The notes: generated by a model from the sequence alone, not told the origin. A DNA stretch of 64,000 nucleotides from Marsupella aquatica (GCA_973895155.1 OZ316892.1:30605328-30669327), one strand, 5' to 3'. Positions 15,688 to 43,141 are shown, numbered from the stretch's first letter. Translations and numbers: made by a program.

Positions 15688-15699
15688 TCAGCCTATTCA

Positions 15700-19069: not shown

Positions 19070-19134
19070 TCCTACAACGTGTTCACCTACACAATTTAAA
19101 ATGTAAAGTATTAGTTAACAACAGTCCCAACTAG

Positions 19135-19653
19135 GAAGCAGATAGGTGTGAACCCTATCCAAGGACAGTGCGCAAATAGGGATCATTCCCATCAAGAAAA
19201 ATAATGGGTCCATAAACAATCCTTAGCTAGCCCTAAGATCCCTGATCCCTATTCAGACGTTGGATAGGAATGATCCCTGTCCAGACGGTAGATAGGTTCT
19301 GTCACTATCCAAACAGTGGACATAGATGATCACTATAAACGGCGGACAGGGATGATCCCTGTCAGAATGGCGGATAGGGTCTATCACTGTCCAAACGGCA
19401 AACAAGGATCATCCCTGCCTAAGCGGCGGATAGTGTCTCTCATTGTCCAAAGGGCGGACACAGCTGATCCCTGTCCAAATGGCGGATAGGGTCTATCACT
19501 GTCCAAACAATAGACATGGATGATTCAAGGTCCGGATCACTTAGGATCACTCAGCGATCCTATCAAGTAAAACCTTTCATATTGGGGTCTCATAAAGCAA
19601 ATACCTCAAACGACGGAGAGGGATCATCCCTATCCAAATGGCGAACAGGGATC
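19135..19653. repeat. 28-bp quasi-palindromic tandem repeat array, left part
   Basis: Degenerate GGACAGGGATCATCCCTATCCAAANNNN units, cut by the CACTA insertion at 19654. Confidence 0.85.
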
Positions 19654-20481
19654 CACTAGTAGAAACCGGGGGGTATTTAGACCCCATTAAACGACTATTC
19701 AGTACCGTATAGGACTTGGAAACGACTGGGAAGGACTCCAGTCCTTTATAGGACTGCGAGTCGTATGTTTTGTTACTATAATCAACTGAGTCCTTTATAG
19801 AACTGGTTTATAAGTCGTTTAATAGACTGGATTTTCAGTCTATTTTAGTCTTTGTGTGGGTAGCTTTGGTGAGTCGTTTTCAATCTTTTATGGGCTGAGA
19901 TGGTGAGTCGTTGGGAACGACTAAAAAGGTTATGGAGGGTAGTCTTTAAATATACTTTGTGGGGTATGTATAAGTCTTTCATGTCAACTGGATATGAGTG
20001 ATGAAGACCCCACTATACTACTTGGAATGAACCCACTCTTGTGCACAAATAACATATTGCATTCATGTTTTATTGTGTACTTGGAATGAACTCACTCTAT
20101 AAGTTCACCATTCATCATGTTAACATTAGAATACATAGTTTCAGAAAGCCATCTTCTATACCATGTACACTAATATGAATTCACAGATTCAAACTTCATA
20201 GACTACAAAGAAGGTCACAAAGTATTCCTCTATACCATACACACTAATACTGAAATGATACAAAACAGATTCAAGTATCATAGACAATCACCATAGAGCC
20301 ATAGTTTGACATCAATCACTTGTTTCATACATACAGAATTCAGAAATATCAATGTCACACACAACGGCTCCTTCATCCTCTTTACCAAATGGAAAAATTG
20401 GTACAGATATTTCTTGGATCTTTCCAAGGCAATGTCAAAATGTGACACAATTCACATGATTCTATCTACACTTGCATTCAG

Positions 20482-23400
20482 TCACTGCAGACTAACACAC
20501 TCTGATGGCCAGAGCACAAGAGATCCTACTGCATCTGCAATTATTTCCTGAGGTGGATCATCGTCTCTATTCGGAAATGGCAAATTACAATCAGATACAA
20601 TCACTGTAGTCAACAACACTACTACATGGTCATCCGGGACCACTTTGCCATGGAATTTTGCATGATCCGGTCGCAAAATGCCTGTACCCACACATACCTG
20701 CAAGTCATCCTCCCATGATAGAAGATTATGGACTGGCTCTACTGTGGCTATCACCTCCACCTTACCCTGGCTGTTTTTCTTGGCTTTCCTGGGTGGCTTA
20801 TACATGACATTATTCATACCTTGGTTGCGAGTCATGACTTTGGCACGAGTGTTTTGTGCTAGTGATCGAGAATTGGCTACACTCTTCTTCAAAGAATCTG
20901 CATCCATATTTGACACTTCTGATTGTGTAGCAGGATTTCCCTGCGACATCATCTCAGTATCTGCCAACATTGTACTTGCTTCAATTGAAGCATCTACAAT
21001 CTTACTTGCATCCAATGTTGCTCCCAAGTTTTGACGTCGCTTCACCCTGCTCCCACTTGGTTGAGAGTCTGTCAACTCTGCATCAACTACAATTCAGTGT
21101 CATGTCCAACATAAGTCAATCACTCATCACATGTGCTAAATGTACATGTCACCCACCACAAAGTTGTCACTATCTCCTTACCATTATGAACAACCTTCTT
21201 CCCCTTCTTTGCCATTGCCATATGCTCCATGTCTGCTTCTGTTGATCAATAAACACACCACAATATTCACGTTGAATCTATTAACCACTGAATTGTTGCT
21301 CAACATTCATATAGAGGAATTTAAAGCATCAGCTTACCTGATACCTCCTTGGCTATGGTCACTGAGGCACTGGGCACATCTTCTTCATTATTGCTCTTTG
21401 AATCACCTGATACATCAATCATGATGTCACTTCAGATCCCAGTTCATCCAACCAGTTCTTACAGAAAAGATTACCTCCAACCGGCTTAAGCTTCACAAAA
21501 CTCCATGCACTTTTCAAATGTAATGTACTGGATCATAGCAGGTTACCTGTCTCAGCAACCTTCTTGCCCTCTGCTTACTGATTACAGGGTCCTTCTCTGC
21601 CTCCACTCTTCCTGCATTCAAACCATTCACTCAATTCATGAAAACTTACTTCTAACATTTGAACATAGGACACAATGAACAATGGGCCGGTGTCATTTCC
21701 ATACCTGTGTCAGATTTGCCAATTCCCTTTTTTGTTAACAAGGGCACACTTTGTACAATGTTGCCCTCATTGTTTGGTTGGGAACCACCCAACTTTTCAA
21801 TCACAAGCTTGAAATTAGATTCCACTGATGCAAAAAGGTTCGCTACAGATGCCTCCACAATATCCAAACGATCAGCCAATTTACTTTCCACTCGAGGGAG
21901 TCCACACTCTAATGACTTCAACCGTTCACACATCTCTGTGAGAGTTGTAACAGTTCCCTGTCATAACACAGCTTACATATCTCAGATAACTGTCCCCAAG
22001 AACTGGTTGCTTACTTCCTACTACATTTCTTTCTGATGCTCAAGGCCAAATAGTCACAGAACATACAGAATTACAACATAATCACCTGTTTGGAAGTTAC
22101 ACTTGTCACCTCACTCCTTTGTTTCATGAACTCCTCTCTCACTTCTTGTGCTGATGGTTCTTCACCTGTCAATTTCTTCTGCAGTCCACATCAACATACA
22201 TATGAATGAAACCAAGTGTTGATTGTCAATGAAAATGTAATAATGGTAGCAAGATGATAAGTTTGAGGCTTACTATCAGGCATGTCACTGCCTTACCAAT
22301 TGTTCTTTCACTGGAGCATAACTTCCTCTCCCAGCCTGTGAAAGGTGTTTCACTTTGCCTCGAGCATTTGACATCAGTTCACTCTTGCTCTGTCCAGCCT
22401 CCGACATGAACCCTTTGATTAACCGTGTCCATTGATCCAGTTCCAATGATGGGGGTGGTGGCATTCTCCTGTTAGAACCATTGTCTATCCACATCCTTTT
22501 CAACCTATGCCTCTCTTGTTTCAAAATCCTCATTGCATAATCTGATATGCAATCTTCAACTGGGCCCTTACCATCATTACCAACATACTCCCACCGTTCA
22601 AGAATGTCCTTGCAGATAGCAGCCCAATCAGCTTTGTTCTGACTCCTAAACTCTGTAATGCTCAAATCTAACCAACGCAATACTTCTCCTCTTAGGTCAG
22701 AATGCCAACGGTTCTTACCATCACAGTGGGAGTTATCCAACCTTCGGAATTCACTTCTACTTTACCAAATTTGTTACTGTCTCCTGCCTTGGTACTCCCT
22801 GAAGCGCTACTAGGTGTCCCTCCACGGCCTGGGGTCCCTCCACGGCCTGATCTCCCCCCACGGCTTGGATTGCATTGTCCAAACCTCCCTGGAGTCCCTG
22901 CACATTTACAGGATCCATTTACAGTCACTTACATTAGGTAAGTATGAATCATAAATCCCGCTGCCAAATATACAGTGGACTTCAGAGCAATTCTGCAATG
23001 ACCAAGTTACCTCTCCCTTGGCGCATAGATGGTTCTGGACCACCTGTCCTATTGCTTTGTCTTGATGAATTAGGGGCGTTTCTCCCGCCTGTGAATGATT
23101 GCCTCCTATCTGAACGTGGATGGCCTTTGTTGTTTTCGTGATTGTCCCAATCAGAGTCTGCATACCAACAGGTACATGCCACACTCATGGACCTGTAAGA
23201 TAAACTCTTTGCCCTAGCTACACATCAGATAAGTGCATATTGAGCTAAATCTCTACTACCATCACAAAATCACTAGCACAAGGCACTTACTTGTCCAATC
23301 ATCCTCCTCACCTTTCCATTGCCCTCTGTACCCGTCTCTACCACGCTCTGGGTGTTCATATTCATCCCATCCATCTTCTGCTCCATCATAGTCATCATCA

Positions 23401-23633
23401 TAATCATCAGGCGTCCCTTGCCAATAACTCTGGCTCCTTCTAGGGTATGGATTATGTGATTTCTCTCTAGCTGCCCACCTACCTGGGACTTGATGAGGGC
23501 CCTGTGCATCTTGCACAGGTGCATTTTTCTGTGAGCCCCCTGCATCTGGGTCTCCATCCATATCCAATCTTTCCTCTTCACCCCACTCTCCAAGCCCCAT
23601 GTCTGTCTCCATGTCATCACCCTCTTCCCCCAT
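20482..23633 (-). pseudogene. CACTA TnpA/Ptta-like second gene, multi-exon
   Basis: Exon 22285..22740 has the Transposase_24-like pattern QWTRLIKGF...SELMSNAR...HLSQAGRGSY. Exon 20482..21075 ends in a Tnp1-like domain (FHGKVVPDDHVVV...LPFP...AVGSLVLWP). Acidic and coiled-coil exons lie between. Exact splicing is unresolved. Confidence 0.65.
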
Positions 23634-23810
23634 AGCTTCTGCACAGCACCCACAACCAAACAGGGAGAATCAGCACACTAAATTCAAAGTATCAATCAAT
23701 TTCATGCATATCCAACTATCCTAAACATCATTCCAGGCAGCAATTCCCGTTCTGTGACTCTGTGCAGGTAGTCATCCTCAACCTCATACTTGCCAATCGC
23801 CAGCTGTTGC

Positions 23811-26800
23811 CTATTGCAAATCATCAACCTCATCATATTCCATTTGCCCAGGTTCATCATATGTCTCTCTCAATGTTAAGGGGATGTAGTCAGTCCCTGC
23901 CCGAGTTGGAAGTACAGTCTCATGACTAGGATGCTCGAATGCAGCATGGTCATCCAAACTGAACTCTACTTTACTTCCATCCATCCGCCTGTTCCGTGCT
24001 TGGCTATGGCATACCACCCTCCAGCCATGTGACTCCTCCACATCTGCAAAGAAAGCCTGTTCAACTTGGCTAGGGAAAACAAAAGGCTCAGACCATTCTG
24101 GTACTCTGGACCTAAAATTGGCCAACAAGAACCCATCATGATCACGCTTCATGGTGGCCCTTGGTCTCTGCCACTCTGATTTCACCCATGATCCCTTCAT
24201 CAATATCACTGGGACACTTGTGTTACCATAATTCAACACCCAAATGTCGGTCAACTCCCCCACGTAACCCATCTTCATCCACCCCCTCTGTTCTTCAGAG
24301 GTTCTCTGCTCAAACACAAAAATCAAACCACAATCATATGATACACAATGGTCACCCTGCTCATCCCTCACTCGATAATGATTTCCATAAGCTCTCATCC
24401 ATTTGTAGGTCAGAATAGACAATCGTGGTGGCACAGATAGAAGATACAAATCCTTCTCCATATCTGGGTGATGTCTACTATGCTCTCGAATTGTCACCCG
24501 AATCCATTGCTCGAACTGTGGGAAGGGATCCTGCTGCCCAGAGTGTGCAGCTTTTTGCATATCATATTCCCTGCAATATGAGGTACAGGCATAGTTAGGT
24601 CTAAACAACACATGACAACCTAAGATCACCCTTGGAACAGACAAGAAGCATCACAACAAAGGCAAGTCAATTCAATCACTCACCTCCACCATGGTTGCAT
24701 AGGCTCTGTGTTTGCCAGCACATATGAATGAGCCTTGTCTCGAATCGCAACAGGCAGCTGAACAACACGTCCCACACCTTCAACAACCTCGCCACTCACT
24801 CCATCATCTTCACCAGATTTCCAAACTCTTGTCATAGCTTCACCAGACCCAGCCATGTACTCTGTTAGGAATCCCAACGTCTCATCCTTAATGTACCCCA
24901 ATGCCATGGAAGCCTCTGGCCTGTAGTATGTTCTCACATGACCTTTCAACAACTTCATGTATCGCTCCATAGGGTACATCCATCTGGTACTGACTGGCCC
25001 ATACTGCCCTAGCTCTTCTACCACATGGATTAGGAGATGAGTCATAACATCAAAGAAAGCAGGGGGGAAGTATATCTCCAAGTCACAGAGGACATAAGCA
25101 GCATCCTGCTTCAACTGCTCCAATCCTTGGGGATCCCACACTTTCACACATATACGGCGAAATACATTGCACAGTCGAAGAATGACATTACGGACTGGTT
25201 TCTGCATGAGACCTCTGAGGCATAGGGGCAGAATGTGCTGCATCAACACATGGTAGTCATGTGTTTTCATACTGCCAAGTTTATTCTTTGTAATATGCTT
25301 CTTGAAGGCACCAGCATAGCCAGAGGGCACTTTCAGACAGCTCAATCTATACAAGAATGTCTTCCATTCATCCTGTGTGCACACATAGGGAGCTTGGAAC
25401 TTGAGAAGTACATTGGGATTGCTTGCATGGGGCTTCAACCAAAGGTGAGGGCGAATCCCCTTCTGTTGCATATCAGCTCGAACTGCTCCTGTATCTTTCT
25501 CACCCGACAAGAACTTCAGCAAGCTCTCACAAATATTTTTCTCAATGTGCATGACGTCCACATTGTGTTTGCTGGGCTCGAATTCTTGCACTCCACAAAG
25601 CAAAGAATTCAACAACAGAAACACTAATTAACCACATAGGAGGATTGTAACCAACATCAATCCACCATTGCTCCAATCTAAAATTGCAATCATACAGGGG
25701 CTGGAGGCTAAGTACATTACCCTCCAGTACTCCAACTCCAAGTCCATCAAGGTCTGTCTTTTCACACCGTGTTTCACCACTGGATCCTCAGGTTCTCGAT
25801 CAGTGGCACTTCTCTTGTCCCAATCAGCCTTCCTGGCTGCCCACCTCAGGACTTGCTCTCTGGTGACCCTCTGTGGTGGGCCACGAAGCTCTGTTTTGTT
25901 GTTGAAGTGTGCAATTTGAGACCGTGTGTGCCTGTAAGGATGATCAACAGGCAGATACCTTCTATGCCCCTGAAATTTCATACTGTGCAGGGCATGCGAC
26001 CACTCACTTGTCACATTTTTCCCACATGGTGTGCACCCCACATAGCCCTTTGTCACTCGTCCAGATATGATGCCATGGCCTGGGTAATCTGCTATATCCA
26101 GCAAACAAATTGCATGCAGTCTAAAGGGGCTGGGTCGAAGAAGCCCCTTCAGAACATCATGGGTTAACACCCCTTCTATCCACAAAGTCTTCCACTCTTC
26201 CACTGCTGGAGCCAACATGATATCTATGAATTGCTCGGTCACAGAAGCTGGTCCAGGGATTAACAGCACCATCATGACAAAAAACCTCTTTGTAGTCATC
26301 CATGGGGGAAGGTTGTAATTTAGCAGCGTAACCGGCCAACATGAATAACGGTTGTTTTTGTCTCCAAATGGGTTTACTCCATCCAGTGATAGACCAAATC
26401 TAAAGTTCCGCTTCTCTGCAGCAAACTGTGGCCACCTCTCATCAACAAATTTCCAATGGTTGGAATCTCCAATGTGACGCTGCAGGCCATCACTGCTCTT
26501 GTTATCAGGAGTCCATGTCATCAGCTTGGAAATGGCAGGGCATCTAAACAGACGTTGAAGTCTAGGAATGAGAGGAAAATGACGAAGAACCTTGGCAGGG
26601 TGTGTACATTTCCCTACATTCTTGTACCTATGCTTACCACAATGAGGGCATGTCAATTTATCTGCATGCTCTTTGCGAAAGAGAACACACCCATCAGGGC
26701 ATGCGTCAATAGACACATAGTTCAGCCCAAGGTTAGACATCAATTTCCTAGCCTCGTACATATTTTTTGGAATTGAATTACCATCTGGTAACACATTTTG

Positions 26801-27511
26801 GCGCATGAAGGTCAACAACTCTGTCACAAATATATTGGGAACATTGTGATTGCCACAGATGTTCAACAACAACACGACAAAACCCAGCTTGGAGCAGTTC
26901 GACCCCTCGTAGATAGGAATGCAAGCTTCTTTGATGTGTTTTGGGCCCCCAAACACCCACTCCCTCTCTGCTGCACCTTCCCCAATGTCAAAGTCAGGTT
27001 CAGCTTGGCCGTCGCCAATGTGTGGCTGCGGTTCATTGTCCTCTTCTGATTCCACTGTGTCATAAAAAGCATCAAGGTCTTCAAAAATCTCTTGAACCAT
27101 TCTTGGGACATCCATCCCACCGTCCTCAGTGACTGCCTCTCCATCTCCATCTTGGTCATCCACGTTCTCATGTTGGACCCCAGGACCATCCTCTGCACAG
27201 TCTATGTCCTGCTCTACGTAGTCTCTATGCCTAGCTGTATTAGAATCCACAAAGTCAGCTCTCCACTCTTCATCAGAGGAGTCTTCTTCTGCTGGTACAT
27301 TCCAAACCCTCCACCGAGGGTGCCTTTCATGCCGCAGGAGGTGAAGGTGCACAGTGTTCAAACTCAACGACTTGAATCCTTGGCACTATGTGCATGGGCA
27401 TCTCATCCTCCTACTCCTACCTTGGGCGGCCCGGGCTTGTTCACGCATCCACAATTTAGAATCATGATGCCTAATCCTAAATGGGTTGTGAAGAGGCAAC
27501 CTTGGAGCCAT
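23811..27511 (-). pseudogene. CACTA TnpD/Tnp2 transposase (zinc domain, Transposase_21, DUF4218, DUF4216), 3 exons, one premature stop
   Basis: ATG 27511, RCPCT*C..VHLHL (TAG at 27386-27388), IDACPDGCVLF, LRHFPLIPRL, LSLDGVNPF, NYNLPPW, DYPG, DVMHIEKN, KTHDYHVLM, FPPAFFDVMTHL, RWMYPMERY and EPFVFPSQVEQ. Confidence 0.93.
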
Positions 27512-27829
27512 CACTATACACACGCACTCAGCACCCTGTCATTTTATTATGCAAGTGAAAAATACACTTCCTGTTAAGGATTTCACCCCCAACTGTACTT
27601 GCCAAAATACGTAACGTTCCAAAAAAACAAAAAATATAGGTGCCTGAGTCATGTACCTATTCTCAAGTGAATGAGACAAAATTCCTAAATGTTTGAGGGT
27701 GTCAACTCCTCCGCTGTCCTCACATGTACTGCCTCTGCACGTACATCCATGACCATATCAGAGTCCAATCATGTATAGTCATAGACACAGGTGCCAGGTG
27801 CGAGACCGGTGTGAGATGTCCTCATCTTA

Positions 27830-28399
27830 CTACCACATCAAATACGGATACCAATCCTGTTGTCGATGCCACTCAGCCCTGAGGTACTCAGGCATGTACA
27901 TTAAGTCATCAAGGTCTAAACCCTGCTCATGCCATGGTGGTCTTCGATCCGTGCCTACAAGCAGTGGCAGCAGTGCCCTCCATGGTGCACATGTTGCTAC
28001 CAAGTCCCTCCACTGGGTACTAATTAGTCTATATTTGCAGATATCTTGTGCGCCAGATACCACAAGAACCCTTGGCCAGACATGTGTAAGAACTATATCA
28101 TCTGCCAAATCAGGCAACAAGGAACCACCTACAGCATCGTGCTTGTCTAACTCATCTGCTGAAAAGTAAATGTCCTCTTCCGACTGTGCATCCTCATTCA
28201 CCACAGCATTCACAACACATCCAAGGTCTGCAGGCATTATCTCGGATGGAGCTACACTCTGTCTGGTTACCAATCCACACAAGTAAGCCCAAGCAGTAGC
28301 CATGCACGATGCAACCCGTAGGAGGACCCTACATAGGGCCTGACGGTCTGGAAGAGGCAGCATACCCACCAAAGTCTTCAGCCAAACAGAGCCCAGCAA
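27830..28399 (-). pseudogene. F-box-like ORF within CACTA
   Basis: LLPDLADDIVLTHVWPRV...ICKYRLISTQWRDLV resembles the plant F-box consensus (LP.L.DD.....l.R...R.Vs..WR.l). The start is unclear. Confidence 0.55.
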
Positions 28400-28539
28400 G
28401 TAGATTCACAGTCACACCCCACGCAGCAGGAAACAACAATCACTTCAACTGCGACCAACCATGACAAGATGAGTTAGTTCAAGGATCACATTTATTACAA
28501 AATTGTGATTTATACAAAAATATGAGGGACTCCTACTCC

Positions 28540-29387
28540 TCACTCTCTCCCACCTTTGCTAAGCATACATCTCCGCTGAATCTTGGAGGGCCAGGCCTCA
28601 AAAATATCAAAGTCCCAAGCATTCTGTCGCTTCCCTCTAGCTGCTGATTCCAGAAGCCAATCAGGGGAAAGCACCCAAAGATTGTTGTTCATGACAAAAT
28701 CACACACTGTTGTCTTAAAGAATTTTCTGCATATTTTCATGTATGACAGACCTACAACATGAGTGGAGGTTTCTGTTAGACTCTCCTCCACTGTCCCACC
28801 TAGCTCAACAACTATAGACTTGTACAATCTGCACTTAGTCTCCCCAATTCCTTCTTCTGCAAATACCACACTGAACCCCTTCATAATGGTATTCTCTCCT
28901 TGCCATGCTCATTCAATATAGCATCTGCACGCATAGGATGGTGTCCTATGTTGACAACAGGTCCATATTGGACAGAAGCAAAGTTGGGTTTCTCTGCCGC
29001 TGCTTCATAGGCTTCCTTTTCAGCCAAAGCCTCTGTAGTGGCCTCCTTACTCTCCCACAACTCATATTGCTCAGTACTCTGTACACACCTATGTTTAACA
29101 GAATCGGTCAGCCAAGAGACTTCAACTACTTTTAGACCTTGGTTGGTAATGGCAGAATCAATGAAGGACCATGACCACTTGTTCATCACATCCAGCCATG
29201 TCCCCGCAACAACATGTGTAGTCTGTGGAGTGATGTCCTTGACTTCAGTCCCATGGAACTCTGAGAATCATTTTTGTACGATTGGCCAACTCACTTGGGT
29301 GAACCCATAGTGGCCAGGAATCAAAATGGCTTTGATTCCAGCCAACAGAGGCGGGTGGTCAACCTTTGTACGTTTCCTAGAGGCCAT
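28540..29387 (-). pseudogene. Tandem BRCT-domain protein (DNA polymerase lambda BRCT-like) within CACTA
   Basis: ATG 29387 gives MASRKRTK. BRCT1 has TTHVVA...VVEVSWLTDS with a TGA at 29268-29270. The frame changes at 28881-28884. BRCT2 has LGGTVEESLTETSTHVV...VLSPDWLLES. Confidence 0.75.
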
Positions 29388-29985
29388 GTACACACGGGCC
29401 ACCTAATCACTGCAGACCGGAAGATAATGCGTTCACCTGATAATCGGAGGGCCCTTAAAATGCTGCGTTTATAACTTGGTCCAGTCTAGTCGTCTGGTGA
29501 GTCTCTGCTCCGATTCCAAACGGGAGAAATATTGGGACAAACGTACTAGACACCTGCAAGCATGCACCTCATAGTTTGAATATGTGCCTTCACAATATTG
29601 AAGGTGACAAGTGCAATTGTTTTGTGATGCCACATACAGATGTTGTAAATGGGCAGACATTCAATGAGAATACAAAATATTGGTACACTTTAAGGGAATT
29701 CTCGCAAATTAAATAGCCTTGTAACTTATATGCTCATAATGAGAAGTCCTGATTTAATTTAAGCAGTGTCATGTAAGTCGTGATCAAAATGATTGCAGAG
29801 TTAAAAAAGTTCCTAGAAGGCTTAAGGGGAGTTTTTGAAGGCATGTACCCAGGAACAAGTAATGAACTTAGGGTACTTGTTGCCTAAGCATCCTCTCCTA
29901 CAGAGGTCCTTCTTCTCAAAATTGGAATGTCTGCAATCTCCAAGGTATCCACATCAGGTGCACTATGCATGTACATTATTCAGGT

Positions 29986-30664
29986 TCAAAGCCAAGAAAT
30001 GTGATCTCTCATGGGAGTGTGCAAAGTAGGATCTATGGCATGGCGATGACAATAGAAGATCCATCGATCAACACCATGTGCAGAGTGATCATAGATGTGT
30101 CTGTCACAAGCATAGCCTTCTGCTTGACGCTCCTTCAAACAATGAAAGTGCCACATGGTGGGACACCTAACAGTGGACTATGTCCACCCAGAAATCTTCA
30201 TCGTGCTGACCACATGCCTTGCACTTATGAAGTGGGCAAGCTGTGGCAAGATCGGGCAAACATGAAAAACAAAAGAACCTCACACAATATCTGTCAGGGC
30301 ATTTCCTAACAAGTGGTGGAGCATCAACAGAGCCCTCATAAGACCCCAACTTCCCACACTGTGCACACTTAGCCTGCTTCTCCAAACAATCAGTGCACAT
30401 CCAGCCTCCCTGGTGTGCTGACGGGAGGCCCACCCCTGGACAGTTGTTTTCTGCAGCAAGGACAGACTCCGGGTTGAGGTGGAAATGCCTCATGCAAGGG
30501 CCCTCACATATGGCTAAGCCACCACCATCGTCACAAATGGCACAACAATGAGCTGCCTTCTGGAAAATCTGACTTGCGGAGAAGTTACTACCATCTGGCC
30601 CAACTACACCTGTGTTGCTCACCTCTGTCCCCCGCTTCTTGGCTCGGATTTTAGGGCGTGCCAT
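29986..30664 (-). pseudogene. EDM2-type composite PHD finger protein within CACTA (one frameshift)
   Basis: CAICDDGG...CEGPCMRHFH...CTDC...CAQCGKLGS...CPLHKCKAC. After a shift at ~30170 it continues RCPTMWHFHCL...WIFYCHRHAIDPTLHTPMRDHISWL*, matching the EDM2 pattern CRRCPKSYHRKCL...LIYCxxHEID...TPxRDH as recalled. Confidence 0.8.
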
Positions 30665-31333
30665 GCCTACGCATGAGATAGATAGTACAATTTAGCAGAG
30701 TGCACAGACAATACAATTTAGTGTAGTGTACAAAAAGTACAGTGTAGCATATAGACTAGAGTGGCAATTGCTACTACAATGAAATGTTCACACACATGTG
30801 CAGAGTAGACATACTTTTTGGTTTGTTGAGCCCACACTAAAAACTGATCCCCTCGTACAATAGCTCCACCTACACCTCAATTTTGTGGCTATGATTCACC
30901 AAAGGAGATCTGCAACAAGATTTAATGCATTTGAATCACATATAACAGTCGTGACATGTAAAACAGGCATTTTTTGAACAGGATTGGTATCAAGCACTGT
31001 GATCAGGGTTGTAATTTATACATCCTAAATAGGCTATGATAGTGAATGAGACAAATAAGTTAGGCAGAAATCACTTTTTCCAGGTTATCACATGGCCCAT
31101 TAATTCGAGTCTTTGAAAGGAGACTTTTAAGTGAGCTTGCTAGCCTCTTAAATTAGGATATTGTACTTAGTGCAGCCATAATAGGATAAGTTATGTACTG
31201 TTGACCCTAAACCCTGGACCCAAAATTGGTCATAATTCAAAATCTTAAGTAAATATCCTCTCTGTTCAAGTCAAAGTGTTAAGTTATAGGTCAATGGTCT
31301 CTGGTTTGTGCATGCGGTGTGACAAGTGGTCCT

Positions 31334-31783
31334 CTAGAGCGTGTGATCCAAACATGTGTAGACACCAAAGTGACCGGTGGTGGGGTCTGGGAGGGCAGGA
31401 CAAGTGACATCGCCAGGCACACTACAGGATGGCGAGTGGTTCCAGATGATACATTGTGCTCTGTGAAAAAACCGACATCCAAGAGAACGGTCATCCAACT
31501 CTAGGCCAGAAGCCCTACAGGCAGGACAGTCATATTGGCAACTGTGCACACACCCTTGGGCCCTAATTTGTGGCGGGTCATGTACTAGAGACAGAAATAC
31601 CAAGGATGTTGGGAAGGGTGGAGAAGCAGGTACAGGCCGGCTGTAGTTGTTCCTGGCAACAACTGGGTACTCAAAGTACCATGCAGACTGGGCTGGAAGG
31701 ATCCCAAGTCTGACATACTCAAGGCGCAACATCTCTGCCTTGCGTGCAAGCCGCACATGTTCAGCGTTGCGGGTCCTCACCAT
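31334..31783 (-). CDS. Small Cys/His-rich ORF of unknown function within CACTA
   Basis: 149-aa ATG-initiated frame, co-oriented with the other cargo, containing CVHSCQYDCPAC...CRFFH...C...H...C. Confidence 0.35.
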   Translation of the reverse strand: MVRTRNAEHVRLARKAEMLRLEYVRLGILPAQSAWYFEYPVVARNNYSRPVPASPPFPTSLVFLSLVHDPPQIRAQGCVHSCQYDCPACRASGLELDDRSLGCRFFHRAQCIIWNHSPSCSVPGDVTCPALPDPTTGHFGVYTCLDHTL

Positions 31784-34700
31784 AAGTGTTGCTTTTGTGG
31801 AGATGTCGTGTGTTCACGTCCTCTGATAAGCACCTTCGATCAGCAAGGTGAGCAGGAGCTGTACTTGCCTCACCAACAGCAACCAACCTTAAATTATCAG
31901 TTCCCACTCACTGTGTCATTCCATTGGTTCCAGCTAGGGGTCACAGTGTAAACATAGCATGAAACACTCCTAATCAACTTGCTTACAAACTACAATATCC
32001 AGAAAGAGTGAAAGTCTCACCCTCCAGTGAGCAGCAGAGTGGTAGTTCAGTAGATGTGTTGATGTGCAGTTAAACCTCCACTATTGCTTACTTCTGGTGT
32101 ATGCTGCTCAGAAGAAGACATATTAGTAGCAGCAAATTGCAAATAATGGCCATAAGCAAACCGTGAGAGTTTGCAGAATGCTACGACAAATCCATCACAG
32201 CAGTGCTCCACAGGAATGAAACCAAGCAAAATTTGGTGACCTCGGCCAATGACAAGGCCAATGTAGTGAACAATCCTTGACCGATCAGGATATGGATTGG
32301 AATTACAATTAGTCAGCTCTTCTTCTTTGTTTTCTAACTCTGGGGGAAATGAGCATGACCAGGGAATTCTCTGAGAAATAGAAGAATCGCTAAGTACAGT
32401 ATTCTTAAGAGTAGTTTTGTTCTAATTCTGAAATCTACACATAGGACATTTATCATGAAAACTGAAGATCCATTTGACAACTCCATGATAGCCTATTCCG
32501 CATTGTGTCCGCTCCATGCAAGCAAGGGGTATTCATCCGAGCTTAGTCTAACCATGAATGATTGTTCTGGAAGCAGTTGCGACAATGTTTTGGTTTTTTT
32601 CTCCTATCCAACTCAATAGCTCACAAACATGGCATTGGACCCATTAACAAATTATACTTGCCATCATTCTCAACTGTATTACATGGCCCACACTGCTGAC
32701 ATCCCTGACTCTTAAGGGAAACTCATCTCCTGGGCCAACAACATCTCAGATTCTACAAAAATGAGAAACTGTGAAAACTTCTTGATCTCCTATCCTGTGA
32801 TTGTAGCATGTATGATTTGCTGGGACTGCAGGCAGTTCTGGACCTTGCTGCGCTTTATATACAACAACAACCTGAGCTCCATGAATTTGTTTTTAATAGA
32901 CGTGCGTTTGACCACGGCTACAACTCCAAAACAATCACCAAATCAAATCATAACAAAACCCACTCGAAAGCTGAACACTAGAACACTGGGAACACACTCA
33001 AACAGGTTCTGCAAGGATGGCTCTCTGTCGGATCGGCTAGAGAATCAGGCAGGCTTCCTATATATGGTCTGCTCAGAGCCTTCCACTCTGGATTAGACTC
33101 TGAATCCAAATGCGAGTCTACGCTTTCCGTTGCTGGTCACAACGACGGGCAATCAGGATGATGCCATGCCGAGTAGAAGAACAAGAAAGCATTCCATAAA
33201 AGGCACTGAGATGAACCGTATAGTAAAAGTGGTAGTACTTCCGGTAGCACGACCGACTCGCTATGTGACAGTCCGAAGAAAAGCTAAAAGGCTGAAAGGC
33301 GATAGATTTTGTGCTCAATGTGACAGGTTTTTTGAAATGATCAAGCCAAGGTGCAAAGGAAAACTGATTGAAGGTGACATGGGAAAGTTGTCAATGCAGG
33401 AGAAACTCTTGCCTTAGAGTAACCGTGTAACCAGGTAACAATGCAGGAGAAACTCTTGCCTTAGAGTGCTCGACGCTCCTTCAGCTGGATAGGGGCAACT
33501 CCAACTACACGGTCTGGTCCAATCACCGCCTGCTTTGTTACAAGAAGGTGGACTAAGCCACAGCTGATGTCAATCACACTGTAAAAAATGGACAGATGAG
33601 CCATGTCACGAAAGCATATATAGTCATTCCTCAATATTAAATGAGACTATGAGAGGGCATATATAAGTTCACGACTAGGAAAGAGTCTCACCTTGTAGCA
33701 CGGAGATTCTCAAAGCGCACCAAGATGAATCATTGTAGCAGGTGAATGTTGGGCGGTGTCATGTAAGGCGCAAATCAATAGCTCGCTACCTCCTGTCTCC
33801 CCGTCTGTCTCCCGTGCACTTCTGCCTCCCCGTCCGGCTTCCCGTCTGTCTCCCACGTACTTAAATTGAAGTTTTAACAAAAACTGTCAACACCAAGTGC
33901 AGCAAATGCCAACATATTCACACGGCAGAGCATAAAAGTAGTCACAGTTCATGAATCAGTTCCCTATCAAATCATGGGCACTACGCCGAGCACTGCGCAA
34001 GAGACTAGGATAGACACTGCAAACATGGGGACTTTTGTTTGGCAAGAAATCTGGACATCAAACCTTCAACAATGGCAACAGGAAGCATTACATCAAACGA
34101 GAGGACATCAAATGAGCAGTCCGGTTATAGGCAAACGGCGACTGACATAGCGGAGGGAAAAAATGCGCATTGACATAGCGGACATGCGCACATTGACATA
34201 GCGGAGGGGAGAAAAACTACAAAGCCAACTAACCTTTTTAAGGCCCACAATTTCAAGGGGAGGGACAAAGAGAGCAAGCACTCCAATCTCTTCAATCCCT
34301 TCTGCAAGTAGCCGCCAAAATCTACTTCTTGGGGTCCAGCCCACGGATGGAGATCATGCAAGGTGGTCAATCACAGTAAGTGCAATCGTTGCAATCCACA
34401 AACAAGCTGCAAATGAAGACACGCAGGAGGGAAAGTCCGCAACACCAACAACATTACCCTTTGTAAAACCCCGAGCTTATCTTCTAGTTGCCAACGCTCA
34501 AACAAAACCTGCTCGGACACTACCAAAACCCTAATTCCATAAGCTCTCACCTTTGCGACACAACTCCTGCACTATATTCAGCTGGCGTTGGCCCACTCTA
34601 AGCTCCCAAGCTTCACTTTAGTCCGCGCCGTGACTAAAGTTTCACTGCCTCTGTGAGCTTCGCAGTCCACCTTACAGATCGAACAAAGCAATCACCTCCC

Positions 34701-35847
34701 TTCACATCCGCACTAATCACCTTTCGCAAAGAGTTGCAATCACCTTCCGCAATACCAGGAAGCTTGCTCCCTCTCGTTCAATGCCTTCTGCAGCATGAGC
34801 GATCACCTCTGCCGAAGCAACTTCAATCGAACACACAGCAACGGGGCGGGCAGTGACAACATTGACAGTGAACGTTGGACTCTACTCAAACAACCTCAAA
34901 GCTGTCACAAAAGAACGAGGAAACATTGAGGCAGAAAACAAAGTCCCTAGCGCCAGGCAACCAAAGTATCGGGAAACCAAAGGATCGGGACCAAAGGAAG
35001 GGACGACATGCCATTCCAACAACGGGAAGGGGGAACGGGACGCGGGAACGGGCAATTTTTTGATGGTGGGGATGGATGCCAACGATCCAATGGTCCCTAA
35101 ACCCCCATCCCCTTAACATGCAACCCCCGACCCTTCACATCAAACCCCCCCTTAACCCCCTTTAGTGAAAACCCAGCCACCCCCTAGCCTTGACATATAA
35201 ACCCCCTAATGTGCTTAGGACAACTCGACTGTGGCCACACTATGTTTGCAATGCCAGGGTCATCCATTTAGAGCGCCGCTTGCAAGCTTTGGCTCTCAAG
35301 ATCCTCCCAAGGCAGCAAACAAGTTAGGGTTCACGGTCCATGTTCCTTTACCCTAAACCGTTGCGTCACTATTTCAATCGAGTGTTCTTCGGCTGGACGT
35401 GCCCCTTTACTGACCCACACCCCCTTGAGACCGGTACAAATCTACCTTTGTGCATCTCGGCCTTTTATAGATGGATTTAGTAATGGCCAAGAATATGTTG
35501 ACCATCCCTCTGTAGTCCACCCTCCATGAACCTCACTTCATTAAACCCAAAATCTTTTTGGTCACAAAATAAGGCCATTTAATGAGTTATGCCCCTTGCT
35601 ATCACCCTCTTTATAGAATTACCCCTCCTCAGCATAAGTGGTCATTACCCATGATGTGCTAGACTATTCATCCTTCACAAAGTAGCAAGGTTACTTTTCA
35701 TAGTCTTTTAGTGAACCATAAAACACTAATAGTCTTTTGTAGTCTTCAACAAAACCGGTGCAATGGGTATGAGTTGTTTTAAGTATGGAAAAAGGACTTA
35801 GTGGGCTTAGTCCTATAAGGTATGGTCTAAATTGCCCCGGTTTCTAC

Positions 35848-36316
35848 CTATCCAAATGGCAGAGAGGGATCAACCCTATCCAAATGGCGGATAGGGATCA
35901 TCCCCATCCAAATGGTGGACAAAGATCATCTCTATCCAAACGGTGGACAGGGATCATCCCTATCCAAATGGTGGACAGGGATCATCCCTATCCAAAAGCC
36001 GGACAAGGATCATCCCCATCCAAACGTTGGACAGGGATCTCTGCCAAAATGATGGATAGTGTCTATCACGGCGGACAGGGATCATCCCTATCCAAATGGC
36101 GGACAAGGATCATCCCTATCCAAAGGATGGACAGGGATCATCCCTATCCAAAATCCGGACAGGGATCATCCCCATCCAAACGGTGGACAGGGATAATCTC
36201 TATCCAAACGGTGGACAGACATCATTCTTATCCAAAATCTGGACAGGGATCATCCATATCCAAACAGTGGACAGGGATCATCCCTATCCAAAAGCCGGAC
36301 AGGGATCATCCCCACC
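35848..36316. repeat. 28-bp quasi-palindromic tandem repeat array, right part
   Basis: About 16 copies of GGACAGGGATCATCCCTATCCAAANNNN, continuing the 19135-19653 array and cut by TGTCAC at 36317. Confidence 0.92.
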
Positions 36317-37400
36317 TGTCACGCGATTGACATGGGTCTTAACACCAAAAACGTCACTATGGGTGTCAAAACCATCTCCTTGTACCTGAGGATCACGAAG
36401 GGATGTTGTGAAGGCCGGTAAACACCAATTTATGCCCTTAACACCAAACTAGATCATAGCCAGACTCCATCACACATCACCCAAGCTCAATCCCAAGGAA
36501 CCAAGGTTGGGGATCAGGTCTACGCTCATGATAGTTCTAGTGAGAAGGGGTCTTCATATCGGGCCCGTACACACAGGGCCTAGCGCTACGGTGCGCACAG
36601 GTCTATACGTATGCTATGGTGCGTCCCATGGCTCCCTAAACCCAAGAAACCCCCCAGCTCAAGCCGATTCCCGCAGGTTTCGCGCTTGGCGAGGCCGTTT
36701 CCGCGGCTTAGCGGCATGGGACGCTGCTAACCTTCTACTACTACTATTAACATTTTACACACATATACTGGACAGATCCTTCATCGGGTCATGAGATACG
36801 TAGCCGGCCTAATCTAGGCCTTCCCCTGTCTTCCCCTCCGTCTTGTTAGGTATGTTTGGATTCCGCCGCCGGAATGATCCCCAATAGGCTTGGTTAAGCC
36901 GCTAAGACCTCTCTCAGCTCGACACATCCAACTCTCACTCCCCTGCTTACTTTCCTTCCCTTTGGTTGATGTGGGCACTCTTCACACAAGTTAATGCGAC
37001 ACACAAATAGCAAAATGACTCATTCTGACTGAGTCATACCATGCACTTGCCATACAAACAGTACATCTCATACACAAGTTCTGCGAACTAAGCCGTGAGG
37101 CCAACTCTATTCAGCTCTTAGGCATGAGGAAACATGAATATACACAAGGGTCACTGTATGACTAACCGAGAGCTTCTCGTACTACTTGATCCCAGCCCGG
37201 CTGGTGCAAACTAAAAACTTGCTAAAGAAGAGGCCCTGAGCTCCCCGCTGCCCAGGTACTTATCCTGGCAGTGGATCCGCCATTCTTTGCATCGTAAGCC
37301 TAATCTACTTAACAGTAATCTACTTGCCCGAATCTACCTATGTACAGCAAGGCAGGAGCACAAGTGTTGCTCCTACCAGTGGGACCGCAATCCCACTAAG

Positions 37401-38477: not shown

Positions 38478-38592
38478 TGTGATGCCTAGACAGGAATCAC
38501 TCGGCCGGTTAAGTGGGTAAAGCAGGAAGGCACCCTAGGAACACCTTAGTATAGTGACAAAACAAGGAAAATATAAACAATTAGGGGCAACC

Positions 38593-41500
38593 ATGGAACC
38601 CGGGCAGAGGCCGGAGGTAAGGCTGAGGGTGAAAACCCGATTAGGGTTAGGGCGCGTTAAGCGTCGGCGGCTAGGAAGGATCAACGGGAAGAAGGACCGG
38701 CAGAGGAGAGGGGTAAGGAGCGCTTGCAGGAGATGGTGGCTCATTTGCGAGCACGAACTAGGCAGACGACTACGGGAGGCCAACTACTGTCAGCTGCTTA
38801 GGCAAGCACTCGGGGAGAGAGTAGATACCGACGATCAACCTAAGGAGGGTATGAGCAACATCAATCAAGCGGCACATTTCTGGGGATGCCTGTTCGAACG
38901 GGCGACTGAGTACATCAAGACTTACGAGGACGAGGAGTCAGAAAGGGCAGCTCGAGAATGGCAGGAGCTCGCTCGATTGTGGGAGCTGCAAAAGACGGCT
39001 TTCTTAGGAGGCGAACTCATCAAGGACGAGTTCCTGTGGACGCCTACTTCCAATCAACTCGACGATCTTCTGTTTTGCAAGGACAGCGTCGTCGGCATCC
39101 GAGAGGCCATCAAGAACTGCAACGACATACACTGGGAATTAAAGGGTAGCACGGAAAGGTGGACCCAGGCAACGGTGCTAGGAGAAACCTCCACGGCAGC
39201 AGAGATGAAGAGGAAGGGAGCCGTCAACGATGAAGCCACCCCGGCAAAAAGAACGAGGTCGGCGGCACCAAAGAAGCCAGCCGAGCAGCAGAGCAGGAGG
39301 CAGGGAGAAGCCGAAGAGGAGGAGGTCGATCCCATCAAGGCCATTCCAACCAGGGATGACACCTGGAAGGGCTGGGCGGCAACCCTACCGGTGGAGGTGC
39401 AACTACATTTTGCACGGGAGGAGGATGCATGCTTTACGGCCATGCAGACCAAGAAGTACCAAGGCTTCATGGCCGGATCCGGCTTGGAGGCCTTTGTAAG
39501 ATTACCATGGCTGAAGCCGGAGGTACCGGAGTCAGACCTATTAGAATTCGTGGGGTCATGGGAACCCGAGACCAATTGCACGAGGATATATGGGAAGGAT
39601 TTCTATCTTACTCCCAAGGTGATTGCCGAAGTGTTTGGCTTGCCGATGGGCAATAAGACCAAAGTTGATACCAGGAAGACCTTGCCTGACAAGGAGTTCC
39701 GGTCGTTCCCCGGGCCATCAACGAAGAATGGCTTCTTCCGGAACACCTGCACCAACCCGCACATAGGAGAGATGATCGACTTCTTGCGGGTGACCATGCA
39801 TTGTAACTTGCCGAGGGCAGAGATCGGCAAGGCACAGGTCTATCTGGCAGAAAGGCCAGACCCAAGCCGGGACTACAACGGGTACCTCCTCAACCAATTG
39901 AAGAAGATCTTAAAGGAGGAGCAGCAGGTAATCGGCATGGGGAGCGTGTCTCGGCTTGGCTATCACATGCCGCTGTTGTGCCGGTATGCCAGAGGTCAGA
40001 CTTTTGCCCCGGTACTTCCCCTGCAGGTAAGGGCACCCGAGGAAGCTCCAACGCCGAGGCCGTTGGCTGAGAAGCCTCAACCACCTGTTAGTCCTACGAT
40101 CGAGCAGGTGTTTAGGCCCAGGAAGGAAGACTTGCCGATGCAGCAACCAGGCATGCAGAGTCTGCTGAAACTACTGGAGAAAGAAAAGAAATCGGCATCG
40201 GCAACAACAACGGCAACGGCAACAATGCAGGACACTACTACAGAGGTAGGCCTACACCGGCTCACAAGAGAAAACCCCTTTGCTGGAGACAAGGAGAGAA
40301 TCAGGCCGGAATCCAAGCCAGGTGTTCGAATGTACGTGGGAACCTCAAGCTCTGAATCTGAGGCAGAATTGCCTGAAGCTCCTACCGAGGAAGAGGAGAG
40401 GGAGAAGCCGGAAATCCAAGAGGTAGAGGAGGCAGTGGAGGACTGCAGCCATGATAATTCCGGCTATGGGTCGGACCATCACGTTCCAGGAGTAAGGACC
40501 TGTGGCCGGTTTGTCCCCACACTTCCAAGGGTAGTGCGAGGGGACCCCAACCAGCAGAGTAGCCCTGAGTCTCCCCCACCAGATGTTGCTCCCCCGAGCT
40601 TCGACGGCATAAAACAGACGGTGCAGGAATTTCAGGAGCGAATCAAGCAGGAGGAAGAGGCCGCCCTGGCTAAGGAAAAGGATTTACCAGGAGGAGATTG
40701 GCCGGAGGACATCAGGCGGCTAGCCGAAAAAGGAAGCAAACCTCTAGCCACGATTGAAGAGATCCGCAGGACGGCTTGGGAGCAGAGGCCACGATGGGCG
40801 ATGCCGATCACTTCTACTTACTCCACCTACGCTAAGAATAGAGCCATGGAGTATGGTGAGATGTGTGGGGAACTTGCGCTCGGCATCTTTGGAGAGGAGT
40901 TGGAGGTAGGACCCTTTTTCCATAGGGAGCAGTTGGAGAAGCACCAATTAGAAGAAGCGGTGGCTTTAGAGAGAAGCAAGAAGGACGAGGTCATTCGGCG
41001 GCTTAGGAGGATGGAAGCCGAGATTGAAGATCTAAGGGCGGCCAAGAAAGCCCAAGATGAACTGCGGATTAAACGACATGAGCTGAACATCATGCAGGGG
41101 CAGTTGGACGCCGCGCAGGCTGATAATCAGAATATCAAGGATAAACTGACTCAGACGCAGGAAGAGTTGGCCGACACGATCAAAGAAAGGGAAAAGTGGA
41201 AGCAAGAGCTGAAGAATACAGAGGAGGCCCACATAACAACCAACAGCCGGGCCATGGCGGAGACCCAAAGAAAGGAATGGGCGTTGAAAGGGGAGCTCGA
41301 GAAAATCCGCGGAGCCCTTGAGCAGAAGGAGGTCGAGTTAGGGAAATCCTATCAAGGGATTATGGCGCTGCAGCAGGAGCTTGCGTCCCTGACGGCCAGC
41401 TTCAAGGCCGACCTAAGGGAGAAGGACGAGATGCTCGAACAGACTTACGCCAAGATGAACCAGATGGAGTCTGTCATCATTGCAGAGCTCGACAAGGAGC

Positions 41501-42216
41501 TAAGAGCAACCCAGGAGGAGAAGGCTACCTTGAAGAAGGAATTGGAGGAAGCCCACAGGGAGCAGGAGGAGGCCAAAAACGAGCTGGAGGGGGCACGTAA
41601 GGACCTGGATGAAACCCAAGAGGAGTTGGAGGAAATCACGAGGAAGATGGAGAACCTACAGCGGCGGGCCGACAACCAAACAGAGCGGCTGAAGAAACAA
41701 GCCGCAGTATTTAAATGCTTAGCTGCAGCAGGTCCATCTCCTGTTGGGACAAACCAGTTACCAGGGGTGGTAATTGCCGAAGGACAAGCCGCGCCACCTG
41801 CACCAGTGCCGGAGGTAAGTGGGAAGGGGAAGGGACCAGCTGCCGAGCCACCAACGAAGAAGAAGCGGAAACCTTCAGGGTCAAGGAGTAATACGACTTC
41901 ACAGGCCGTGGTGATCAAGGAGGTAGACCCAGCACCGACCCCAGACAGGGTCACGGCTAAGGATCCAACTACCCTAGGGGAAGGGGAGGCCGAAGCCGTG
42001 GGAGTGGCTGAAGCCGAAGCCGTGGGGGTGGCTGAAGCCGAAGCCGTGGGTATTGCCGAGGCCGGTGTCGAGGCTGAAGCCGAAGGTGGACCCAGTCAGG
42101 CCGAGGGAGAGTTGACTCGGTCAAGGGCAGGTAATCTGTCAGTAGGCGGGCCAACGGCAGTGGCTGCGGAGGAAGTGTTGGGGGCATCCATTGAGGATCC
42201 ACCACCGGTGTCGTGA
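38593..42216 (+). CDS. LTR-encoded ~1200-aa protein (PMD/plant-transposon-like segment, acidic/Pro-rich linker, long coiled coil), 5' LTR copy
   Basis: Open from GTG 38554, first ATG 38593, alternative ATG 38851. Motif LLEFVGSWEPETNCTRIYGKDFYLTPKVIAEVFGLP at ~39540-39645. Heptad-rich region ~40930-41710. Confidence 0.85.
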   Translation: MEPGQRPEVRLRVKTRLGLGRVKRRRLGRINGKKDRQRRGVRSACRRWWLICEHELGRRLREANYCQLLRQALGERVDTDDQPKEGMSNINQAAHFWGCLFERATEYIKTYEDEESERAAREWQELARLWELQKTAFLGGELIKDEFLWTPTSNQLDDLLFCKDSVVGIREAIKNCNDIHWELKGSTERWTQATVLGETSTAAEMKRKGAVNDEATPAKRTRSAAPKKPAEQQSRRQGEAEEEEVDPIKAIPTRDDTWKGWAATLPVEVQLHFAREEDACFTAMQTKKYQGFMAGSGLEAFVRLPWLKPEVPESDLLEFVGSWEPETNCTRIYGKDFYLTPKVIAEVFGLPMGNKTKVDTRKTLPDKEFRSFPGPSTKNGFFRNTCTNPHIGEMIDFLRVTMHCNLPRAEIGKAQVYLAERPDPSRDYNGYLLNQLKKILKEEQQVIGMGSVSRLGYHMPLLCRYARGQTFAPVLPLQVRAPEEAPTPRPLAEKPQPPVSPTIEQVFRPRKEDLPMQQPGMQSLLKLLEKEKKSASATTTATATMQDTTTEVGLHRLTRENPFAGDKERIRPESKPGVRMYVGTSSSESEAELPEAPTEEEEREKPEIQEVEEAVEDCSHDNSGYGSDHHVPGVRTCGRFVPTLPRVVRGDPNQQSSPESPPPDVAPPSFDGIKQTVQEFQERIKQEEEAALAKEKDLPGGDWPEDIRRLAEKGSKPLATIEEIRRTAWEQRPRWAMPITSTYSTYAKNRAMEYGEMCGELALGIFGEELEVGPFFHREQLEKHQLEEAVALERSKKDEVIRRLRRMEAEIEDLRAAKKAQDELRIKRHELNIMQGQLDAAQADNQNIKDKLTQTQEELADTIKEREKWKQELKNTEEAHITTNSRAMAETQRKEWALKGELEKIRGALEQKEVELGKSYQGIMALQQELASLTASFKADLREKDEMLEQTYAKMNQMESVIIAELDKELRATQEEKATLKKELEEAHREQEEAKNELEGARKDLDETQEELEEITRKMENLQRRADNQTERLKKQAAVFKCLAAAGPSPVGTNQLPGVVIAEGQAAPPAPVPEVSGKGKGPAAEPPTKKKRKPSGSRSNTTSQAVVIKEVDPAPTPDRVTAKDPTTLGEGEAEAVGVAEAEAVGVAEAEAVGIAEAGVEAEAEGGPSQAEGELTRSRAGNLSVGGPTAVAAEEVLGASIEDPPPVS
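41990..42085 (+). repeat. 24-bp coding minisatellite (AEAEAVGV)
   Basis: GCCGAAGCCGTGGGAGTGGCTGAA units, with one extra unit in the 3' LTR (52873-52993). Confidence 0.85.
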
Positions 42217-43141
42217 CGGTGCAAGGGCGCCGTTCCTTTTAGGGAGGGCGGACGTGGAGGGAGGAGGCGTGAGTGGGCAGGGCGGGCATGGATCTCCACG
42301 TTTAGGATTAGGATCAGAACCAGGAGCGGCCCTGACACTTAGCTTAGTGGGATTGCGGTCCCACTGGTAGGAGCAACACTTGTGCTCCTGCCTTGCTGTA
42401 CATAGGTAGATTCGGGCAAGTAGATTACTGTTAAGTAGATTAGGCTTACGATGCAAAGAATGGCGGATCCACTACCAGGATAAGTACCTGGGCAGCGGGG
42501 AGCTCAGGGCCTCTTCTTTAGCAAGTTTTTAGTTTGCACCAGCCGGGCTGGGATCAAGTAGTACGAGAAGCTCTCGGTTAGTCATACAGTGACCCTTGTG
42601 TATATTCATGTTTCCTCATGCCTAAGAGCTGAATAGAGTTGGCCTCACGGCTTAGTTCGCAGAACTTGTGTATGAGATGTACTGTTTGTATGGCAAGTGC
42701 ATGGTATGACTCAGTCAGAATGAGTCATTTTGCTATTTGTGTGTCGCATTAACTTGTGTGAAGAGTGCCCACATCAACAGAAGGAAGGAAAGTAAGCAGG
42801 GGAGTGAGAGTTGGATGTGTCGAGCTGAGAGAGGTCTTAGCGGCTTAACCAAGCCTATTGGGGATCATTCCGGCGGCGGAATCCAAACATACCTAACAAG
42901 ACGGAGGGGAAGACAGGGGAAGACAGGGGAAGGCCTATATTAGGCCGGCTACGTATCTCATGACCCGATGAAGGATCTGTCCAGTATATGTGTGTAAAAT
43001 GTTAATAGTAGTAGTAGAAGGTTAGCAGCGTCCCATGCCGCTAAGCCGCGGAAACGGCCTCGCCAAGCGTGAAACCCGCAGGAATCGGCTTGAGCTGGGG
43101 GGTTGCTTGGGTTTAGGGAGCCATGGGACGCACCACATTTT

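Follow-up and report, generated by a model that had tools for sequence, protein, structure and literature searches.

What is a gene for a composite PHD-finger module doing among transposons, does it belong to one of them, and what might its product do? The question is raised by the 64,000-nucleotide stretch of Marsupella aquatica DNA analysed here (the window), in which a six-frame motif scan finds such a gene at one place only, on the minus strand at 29986..30664, running from an ATG at 30664–30662 to a stop codon at 29988–29986. These are exactly the limits given in the original prediction, which described a stand-alone EDM2-like protein of ~225 residues, carried inside a transposon and interrupted by one frameshift at ~30170. 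From stop to ATG the gene is 679 nt long, 2 nt short of 226 codons and a stop, and it is read as two ORFs: P0001 (30691..30170, minus strand; 174 aa, with its Met at 30664) and P0002 (30177..29989, minus strand; 63 aa, ending at the stop at 29988–29986). The two frames overlap by 8 bases and differ by +1, so that there is a single frame change inside 30170..30177 (minus strand), at the place expected; other copies have two letters more than the window between 30169 and 30170. A word-index search recovered two uninterrupted relatives on contigs of about 1.1 kb, P0183 (226 aa; 79% identical to the window ORF, E = 4e-85) and P0184 (220 aa; 72%, E = 8e-76), both of which begin with MAR and finish with the same four residues as the second ORF of the window. 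Since these intact proteins share the start and end of the gene seen here, the window holds a broken copy of a 226-codon PHD gene, and their lengths bear out the complete composite module of ~225 residues that repair of the frameshift was expected to give. The start and stop are also kept, with the ORF complete, in relatives down to 44–55% identity, as a stand-alone protein would have it.

Within the protein, finger 1 is preceded by 35 residues and lies at 30386..30550 (minus strand; Pfam PHD-1st_NSD, P0001 residues 48–102, E = 2.4e-4), and finger 2 follows at 30245..30379 (minus strand; Pfam PHD_NSD, P0001 residues 105–149, E = 3.4e-3). Both matches are below the curated cut-offs (21.6 bits with a cut-off of 27 for PHD-1st_NSD, and 18.1 with a cut-off of 23.9 for PHD_NSD), and the relatives P0004 and P0011 pass the cut-offs for PHD-1st_NSD, PHDvar_NSD or PHD_NSD. 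A variant PHD finger 3 and a conserved tail occupy 29989..30238 (minus strand), and the frameshift falls within this segment; finger 3 is assigned from Pfam PHDvar_NSD matches in relatives P0004, P0006 and P0011, from the alignment, and from Foldseek matches to the NSD PHD5-C5HCH tandem (see below). The EDM2-like tail that had been described is indeed present in P0002, where it aligns to the stretch that closes the PHD module in EDM2-named proteins, and the ORF stops 4 residues past the module. A HMMER search of 1.84 billion representatives returned 171 proteins at E ≤ 1e-3, 22 at E ≤ 1e-10 and five at E ≤ 1e-30, and the window retains zinc ligands at 28 of 28 columns that are Cys or His in at least five of the six intact short relatives. 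Because of the number of library proteins matched and the complete retention of these columns, the match of the window ORF to PHD-module proteins is far beyond chance.

The fold was modelled with AlphaFold2 from the relative P0183, rather than from the broken ORF of the window, with a 63-row alignment (pLDDT 87.7, pTM 0.81). The first 23 residues, which are basic in sequence, have pLDDT values below 50 and are predicted to be disordered. A Foldseek search of the PDB with this model places multi-PHD histone readers on top, including the PZP modules of JADE1 and BRPF1 (E = 4e-5 to 1.5e-4) and the PHD5-C5HCH tandems of NSD1, NSD2 and NSD3, which match over ~117 columns with probabilities of 0.99–1.0 and a target-normalised TM-score (TMt) of 0.57–0.61; across the PZP modules and NSD tandems together the probabilities are 0.97–1.0. 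It is the last two fingers of the P0183 model that superpose on the NSD tandem, and the whole-model TM-scores are low (0.2–0.29), as expected if the relative positions of the fingers differ.

As to which of the known finger clusters the module belongs to, P0183 and a Cryptomeria protein named EDM2 align over 212 aa, from finger 1 through the tail, with 34% identity (E = 6e-32). A family profile search finds NSD2 (residues 649–799, E = 2e-20) and NSD3 (E = 3e-18), and a single-sequence search of the PDB at E ≤ 1 returns AIRE PHD1 and a small number of further single fingers but no NSD protein. We scanned 104 of the 150 listed matches with Pfam (30 at E ≤ 1e-3 and 74 at E ≤ 1e-6), and in 27 of these a DNMT1-RFD domain precedes the NSD-type PHD fingers, in proteins of ~550–1400 aa; proteins with the DNMT1-RFD plus PHD combination (e.g. 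that of Cryptomeria) carry the cluster name ENHANCED DOWNY MILDEW 2. A kinase domain and a DNA-ligase domain were each found in one scanned relative, and SET, PWWP, BRCT and transposase domains occur in none of the 104. The word-index search with P0001 recovered no fused or longer forms, which is weak evidence. Because of the EDM2 alignment over 212 residues together with the NSD2 and NSD3 profile matches, the module is placed by these comparisons in the EDM2/NSD finger cluster with EDM2 as its nearest named relative; the homology check proposed at the outset, EDM2 versus NSD, thus comes out on the side of EDM2 with the tail aligned, and the NSD proteins are reached by profile only.

The kinship with EDM2 is nevertheless not a close one. 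A tree of the module (53 rows, 187 columns; IQ-TREE quick method, LG+G4; 10 short rows dropped for low cover) groups ten short proteins in one clade with an SH-aLRT of 100, nine of them 166–245 aa long and the tenth, P0015, of 257 aa. Branches of 0.42 and 0.78 separate this clade from the 43 other, EDM2-like rows, among which are liverwort, conifer and angiosperm proteins, and path lengths inside the clade are 0.8–1.35; the tree is unrooted, and a position as sister to all the others is not separable in it from that of a fast-evolving offshoot. As drawn by this tree, the short family is an old, deeply split lineage apart from the EDM2 clade, and its more distant members P0003–P0008, P0011 and P0015 could be host genes. 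The description 'EDM2-like' thus holds for the module and its tail and is too broad for the protein as a whole, which the phylogeny puts in the separate short clade. Members of the short family have Cys at one finger 2 column where the EDM2-like rows have His, and their finger 2 is shorter, being without an insert of roughly 20 residues found in the EDM2-like rows.

These relationships bear directly on one account of the gene, in which its product mimics EDM2 and acts as a dominant-negative or decoy on the marked nucleosomes that host EDM2 occupies, and so alters how RNA is processed at heterochromatic introns. In published descriptions EDM2 binds H3K9me2 and provides the chromatin contact of a complex at intronic heterochromatin, to which it recruits ASI1/IBM2 and EDM3/AIPP1 (PMC7529245), and a protein that aligns with the entire EDM2 PHD module, tail included, and is without every other EDM2 domain has the composition a decoy for such a recruiter might have. 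A long branch nevertheless separates the family from all 43 EDM2-like rows, the Cys-for-His ligand and the missing finger 2 insert leave the same mark specificity not assured, and finger 1 of P0183 has its best match among solved structures in AIRE PHD1 (E = 9e-4). There is also no evident benefit to the element from blocking EDM2, and we regard this account as unlikely.

Other copies of the gene were sought in public sequence data. Eleven public runs were listed, nine of which have part of the stretch, as contigs of unrecorded kind from organisms coded A to E (one of the nine has no organism on record), and none of the eleven is recorded as RNA; contigs were aligned from four runs on 19000–36600 and from four runs on 29950–30700. 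Two extra letters (AC) behind 30169, which close the frameshift, are present in 1977.8 of 2103.4 units of contig depth in run X1 and in 16913.5 of 18174.4 in run X3 (93–94% in both), but in only 10967.6 of 54797 (20%) in run X2 and 13.6 of 110.7 (12%) in run X5. One X1 contig of 244 nt, with a depth of 1977.8, matches the window in every letter but these two, and loose contig ends at 30169 in X1 and X5 represent a second variant, giving the residue that is seen in P0183. The break in the window is therefore a two-base gap that is absent from most of the depth in organism A. Unshifted copies, a search for which had been recommended, thus do exist, both as the intact proteins P0183 and P0184 and as the AC-bearing contigs, and it is not the case that all copies are disrupted. 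X1 further contains a second variant of the gene, about 10–13% different and of similar depth. A separate small feature is seen at 30509–30521, where the window differs from almost all of the X1 depth at five of 13 bases (four differences synonymous and one Ala to Val); the cluster has the look of a short tract found only in the window copy or in a minor variant.

The differences between copies carry information on whether the protein matters. The 40 of 68 differences that are listed fall at 38 places in the ORF, and 19 of these are synonymous, 19 non-synonymous and none a stop, in an ORF with 79% non-synonymous sites and in which 4.2% of single changes would create a stop codon (one-sided binomial p = 7e-5; crude dN/dS (omega) 0.27, from this partial list, with transition bias ignored and sites treated as independent). 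The 26 listed differences that mark the second X1 variant are also evenly divided, 13 synonymous and 13 non-synonymous (p = 0.001). This deficit of amino-acid-changing differences points to constraint on the PHD protein, as do the uninterrupted reading frames of P0183 and P0184, together with the retention of the ligands at 44–55% identity.

CACTA elements capture fragments of host genes, and the gene could be such a captured piece, carried as neutral cargo without function like many others in plant DNA transposons. That the window copy and its neighbouring ORFs are broken would fit, as would the state of the close relative P0003, in which the module is lost after residue 141. Set against this are the complete ORF with conserved start and stop in divergent relatives, the 28 retained Cys/His columns, the equal division of synonymous and non-synonymous differences with no stops where about 4% would be expected of random changes, and the depth of a clade that is separate from host EDM2. 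With these in view neutral carriage seems decidedly unlikely.

A probable end of the element is seen on either side of the gene. Its left terminus (19656..19690, plus strand) begins CACTAG, and contig depth rises at this point; its right terminus (35820..35852, minus strand) shares ~24 nt with the left end in inverted orientation and has lost the CACTA letters themselves. No 3-bp target-site duplication is readable at the element ends, the right terminus being imperfect. Termini of the form CACTACAA were considered separately and rejected; their two matches in the window are at chance level and neither is near the element. Between the ends is a TNP2-type CACTA transposase (23814..27538, minus strand) with matches to Transposase_21 (E = 1e-59), DUF4218 (E = 2e-27) and DUF4216 (E = 2e-5), for which there are 46 matches of at least 1025 aa, 44 of them named plant proteins at 31–41% identity and two fungal proteins at 28–30%. 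A weak TnpA-like ORF is at 22288..22761 (minus strand; Pfam Transposase_24, E = 7.6e-3, below cut-off). The PHD gene is upstream of the transposase and of a tandem-BRCT ORF that lies between them, all on the same strand.

Contig depth offers a way of asking whether the gene and the transposase travel together. Summed contig depth in X1, which is not copy number, is 445 at 19000–19586, 1823–7735 per bin over 19587–32500, and 373–683 over 32501–34848, and contigs that resemble the window have a depth of 1872–1978 over the PHD gene and 1766–2073 over the transposase. Because these two depths are equal, the PHD gene and the transposase would be in the same repeated unit; the observation from one window and the equal depths argue for this. 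The location of the gene inside a transposon, as originally proposed, is upheld by the transposase on the same strand, the CACTA end and the matching depth. Within the termini, the interval 32501–35435 has a contig depth several-fold lower than the rest (in X1, 373–1014 versus about 1800–7700), which would fit either an insertion nested in the element or a segment missing from most copies.

The same data make it highly improbable that this is a low-copy host PHD gene overrun by transposons and caught by chance between pieces of them. Such a history would accommodate the imperfect right terminus and the absence, among the contigs shown, of one spanning both the PHD gene and the transposase. It is at odds, however, with the 1021 contigs of X2 and 72 of X1 that map to the 751 bases of the gene region and the at least two X1 variants at about equal depth, and with a window-like depth over the gene that is the same as over the transposase and several times that of 32501–34848.

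The copy of the element in the window is decayed and dead, because the BRCT and transposase ORFs are broken in addition to the PHD gene. The tandem-BRCT ORF (28540..29387, minus strand; Met at 29387, stop at 28542–28540; Pfam BRCT, E = 1e-9 and 6e-3) is interrupted by an in-frame TGA at 29270–29268 and a one-base gap at 28891, and the transposase has in-frame stops at 27388–27386 and 25630–25628. Other copies have one more base at 28891 (1767.5 of 1767.5 depth in X1), which makes the BRCT ORF continuous in them. The tandem-BRCT ORF starts at a Met of its own, has a basic N-terminus and looks like a second small accessory gene of the element. The transposon setting originally proposed stands as regards the element itself and is incomplete in other respects, as the adjoining tandem-BRCT ORF went unmentioned and the copy is ridden with lesions. 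Between the BRCT ORF and the transposase there is also an ORF of 191 codons (27833..28405, minus strand), part of which weakly resembles an F-box (Pfam E = 0.082), with atlas scores of 0.88–0.89 to F-box clusters, a recognition that is below the threshold of the tool; if the F-box is real, this ORF would be a third accessory gene, and we regard it as a weak lead.

In plants, BRCA1 and BARD1 combine a PHD domain with a BRCT-BRCT pair, and capture of the two ORFs from such a gene was considered and rejected, as BRCT is found in none of the 104 scanned PHD relatives and a search of the PDB with the BRCT ORF reaches BRCA1 only at E = 0.31. The same two results count against a proposal that retains the pairing in another form, namely that the PHD and tandem-BRCT proteins work together at the double-strand break left by excision and bias its repair so as to restore the donor copy. 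The two ORFs are adjacent and on the same strand, each with its own Met and basic N-terminus, and the BRCT ORF is continuous in other copies, all of which would fit; we nevertheless consider a role in steering repair very unlikely. A broader proposition is that this cut-and-paste element carries a chromatin toolkit upstream of its transposase, in which an EDM2-type histone reader is joined by a phospho-reader with tandem BRCT domains and perhaps by an F-box protein; the reader would represent an ancient transposon lineage of the EDM2/NSD module and not a recent capture. We hold this to be an outside chance. If true, chromatin sensing, steering of break repair or removal of host silencing factors could explain the very high copy number.

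The remainder of the window is also rich in repeats. Arrays of a near-palindromic ~28-nt unit lie just outside both termini of the CACTA element (19140–19650 and 35855–36315), and a further unit at 18031–18060 is inside an ORF of 490 codons (17012–18484, minus strand) that has no Pfam match at E ≤ 0.01; the arrays may belong to this element or to one into which it has inserted, and could be subterminal repeats of a larger element. A young LTR retrotransposon occupies 38478–54043, with direct repeats ~10.9 kb apart that are 99–100% identical, and encloses a Ty3-type gag-pol (43204–49373). Each of its LTR-like repeats contains an open frame of 1225–1233 codons with a weak match to Pfam ATG16 (E = 0.003, below cut-off), and a third, inverted copy of the repeat, 98% alike, is at 54046–56673; such long ORFs in LTR-like repeats are unusual. 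Retrotransposon pieces are also present at 5940–9565 and 14952–15692, with an integrase and a reverse transcriptase of Ty1/copia type and an integrase core. Taken as a whole, the window resembles a set of transposons nested in one another, and no host gene is evident in it.

Taking the evidence together, we favour the reading, by a little better than an even chance, that the PHD gene is an accessory gene of a many-copy CACTA family and that its intact product is likely the element's own reader of histone H3 tails. We infer H3-tail reading because the module is kin to that of EDM2 and resembles solved H3-tail readers. The product would be a small nuclear protein with a basic, disordered N-terminus that docks on nucleosomes with a particular pattern of H3 marks, and acts without the effector domains that EDM2 carries. 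Having no effector domain, it would either dock the element's proteins on marked chromatin, for which RAG2, a protein with a PHD finger that serves a recombinase of transposon origin, offers a parallel (PMC4411706), or compete with host readers; we rank docking above competition because the family is far from EDM2 and its ligands have diverged. Docking in turn might steer where the transposase acts, or might keep the genes of the element expressed in silenced chromatin.

Transposon accessory proteins that resist silencing or choose targets are known, as are host-like chromatin domains on transposons, for example the chromodomains on integrases. For a plant CACTA family that encodes an EDM2-type reader as a gene of its own, no precedent turned up in the literature: a full-text search found no report of a plant DNA transposon with an EDM2-type PHD reader, and the main text of an Arabidopsis atlas of transposon products (PMC13547354) does not once contain 'PHD', 'EDM2' or 'BRCT'. 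If it is under selection, a reading module of this type owned by a transposon would give direct access to the question of how such an element perceives its own silencing or turns it to use, because EDM2 binds H3K9me2, the mark of transposon silencing, and controls transcripts passing through transposons that have been silenced. At 226 aa it would also be a compact natural module with which to test what the EDM2/NSD-type finger cluster reads.

Comparison with known systems helps to place the gene. EDM2 of land plants has the same composite three-finger module and conserved tail, in a protein of about 1200–1400 aa rather than 226 aa. In addition to its fingers it has an N-terminal DNMT1-RFD-like domain, a long C-terminus and a methyltransferase-like (ELP) domain, described as C-terminal and N6-adenine methyltransferase-like (PMC7529245), none of which the window protein has. 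To these differences are added the separate clade, the Cys-for-His ligand and the shorter finger 2 noted above, and the carriage of the window family by a transposon. More similar in size are the PHD-only 'EDM2-like' proteins of grasses (the rice Os03g0266600 cluster and a wheat/Aegilops cluster), which are 259–345 aa long and consist of essentially the same module, and the nearest ESM Atlas cluster to P0183 (score 0.93), a streptophyte cluster of 65 members, has a similar PHD-only make-up. The grass proteins are, however, annotated host genes on chromosomes with ~31–38% identity to the window protein, and in the tree their representatives (P0017 and P0024) cluster with the EDM2-like rows and not with the window family. 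NSD1, NSD2 and NSD3 are linked to the window protein by profile matches, the fold of the last two fingers and the NSD-named Pfam families, but these methyltransferases have SET and PWWP domains, neither of which is present in the ORFs of the window or in the 104 scanned relatives.

Two further systems are comparable in biology rather than in sequence. The PHD finger of RAG2 reads histone. RAG2, of the RAG/Transib lineage, is unlike the window protein in several respects, as it has no sequence kinship with it, combines a beta-propeller with one PHD finger, and belongs to another transposon superfamily and to animals. VANC of the Arabidopsis VANDAL elements is a known transposon accessory protein that fights silencing; in this system a plant DNA transposon encodes accessory proteins countering the silencing of their own family (PMC5735166, PMC10398659); VANC differs in its sequence-specific binding of DNA motifs of the element, the lack of a PHD module, and its membership of a Mutator-like superfamily. 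RAG2 in turn is described as an accessory protein with a PHD finger that has been traced to a transposon (PMC4411706), and the likeness, a PHD accessory protein beside a transposase with the same transposon origin, makes it the best precedent for how the PHD gene of this CACTA family may work.
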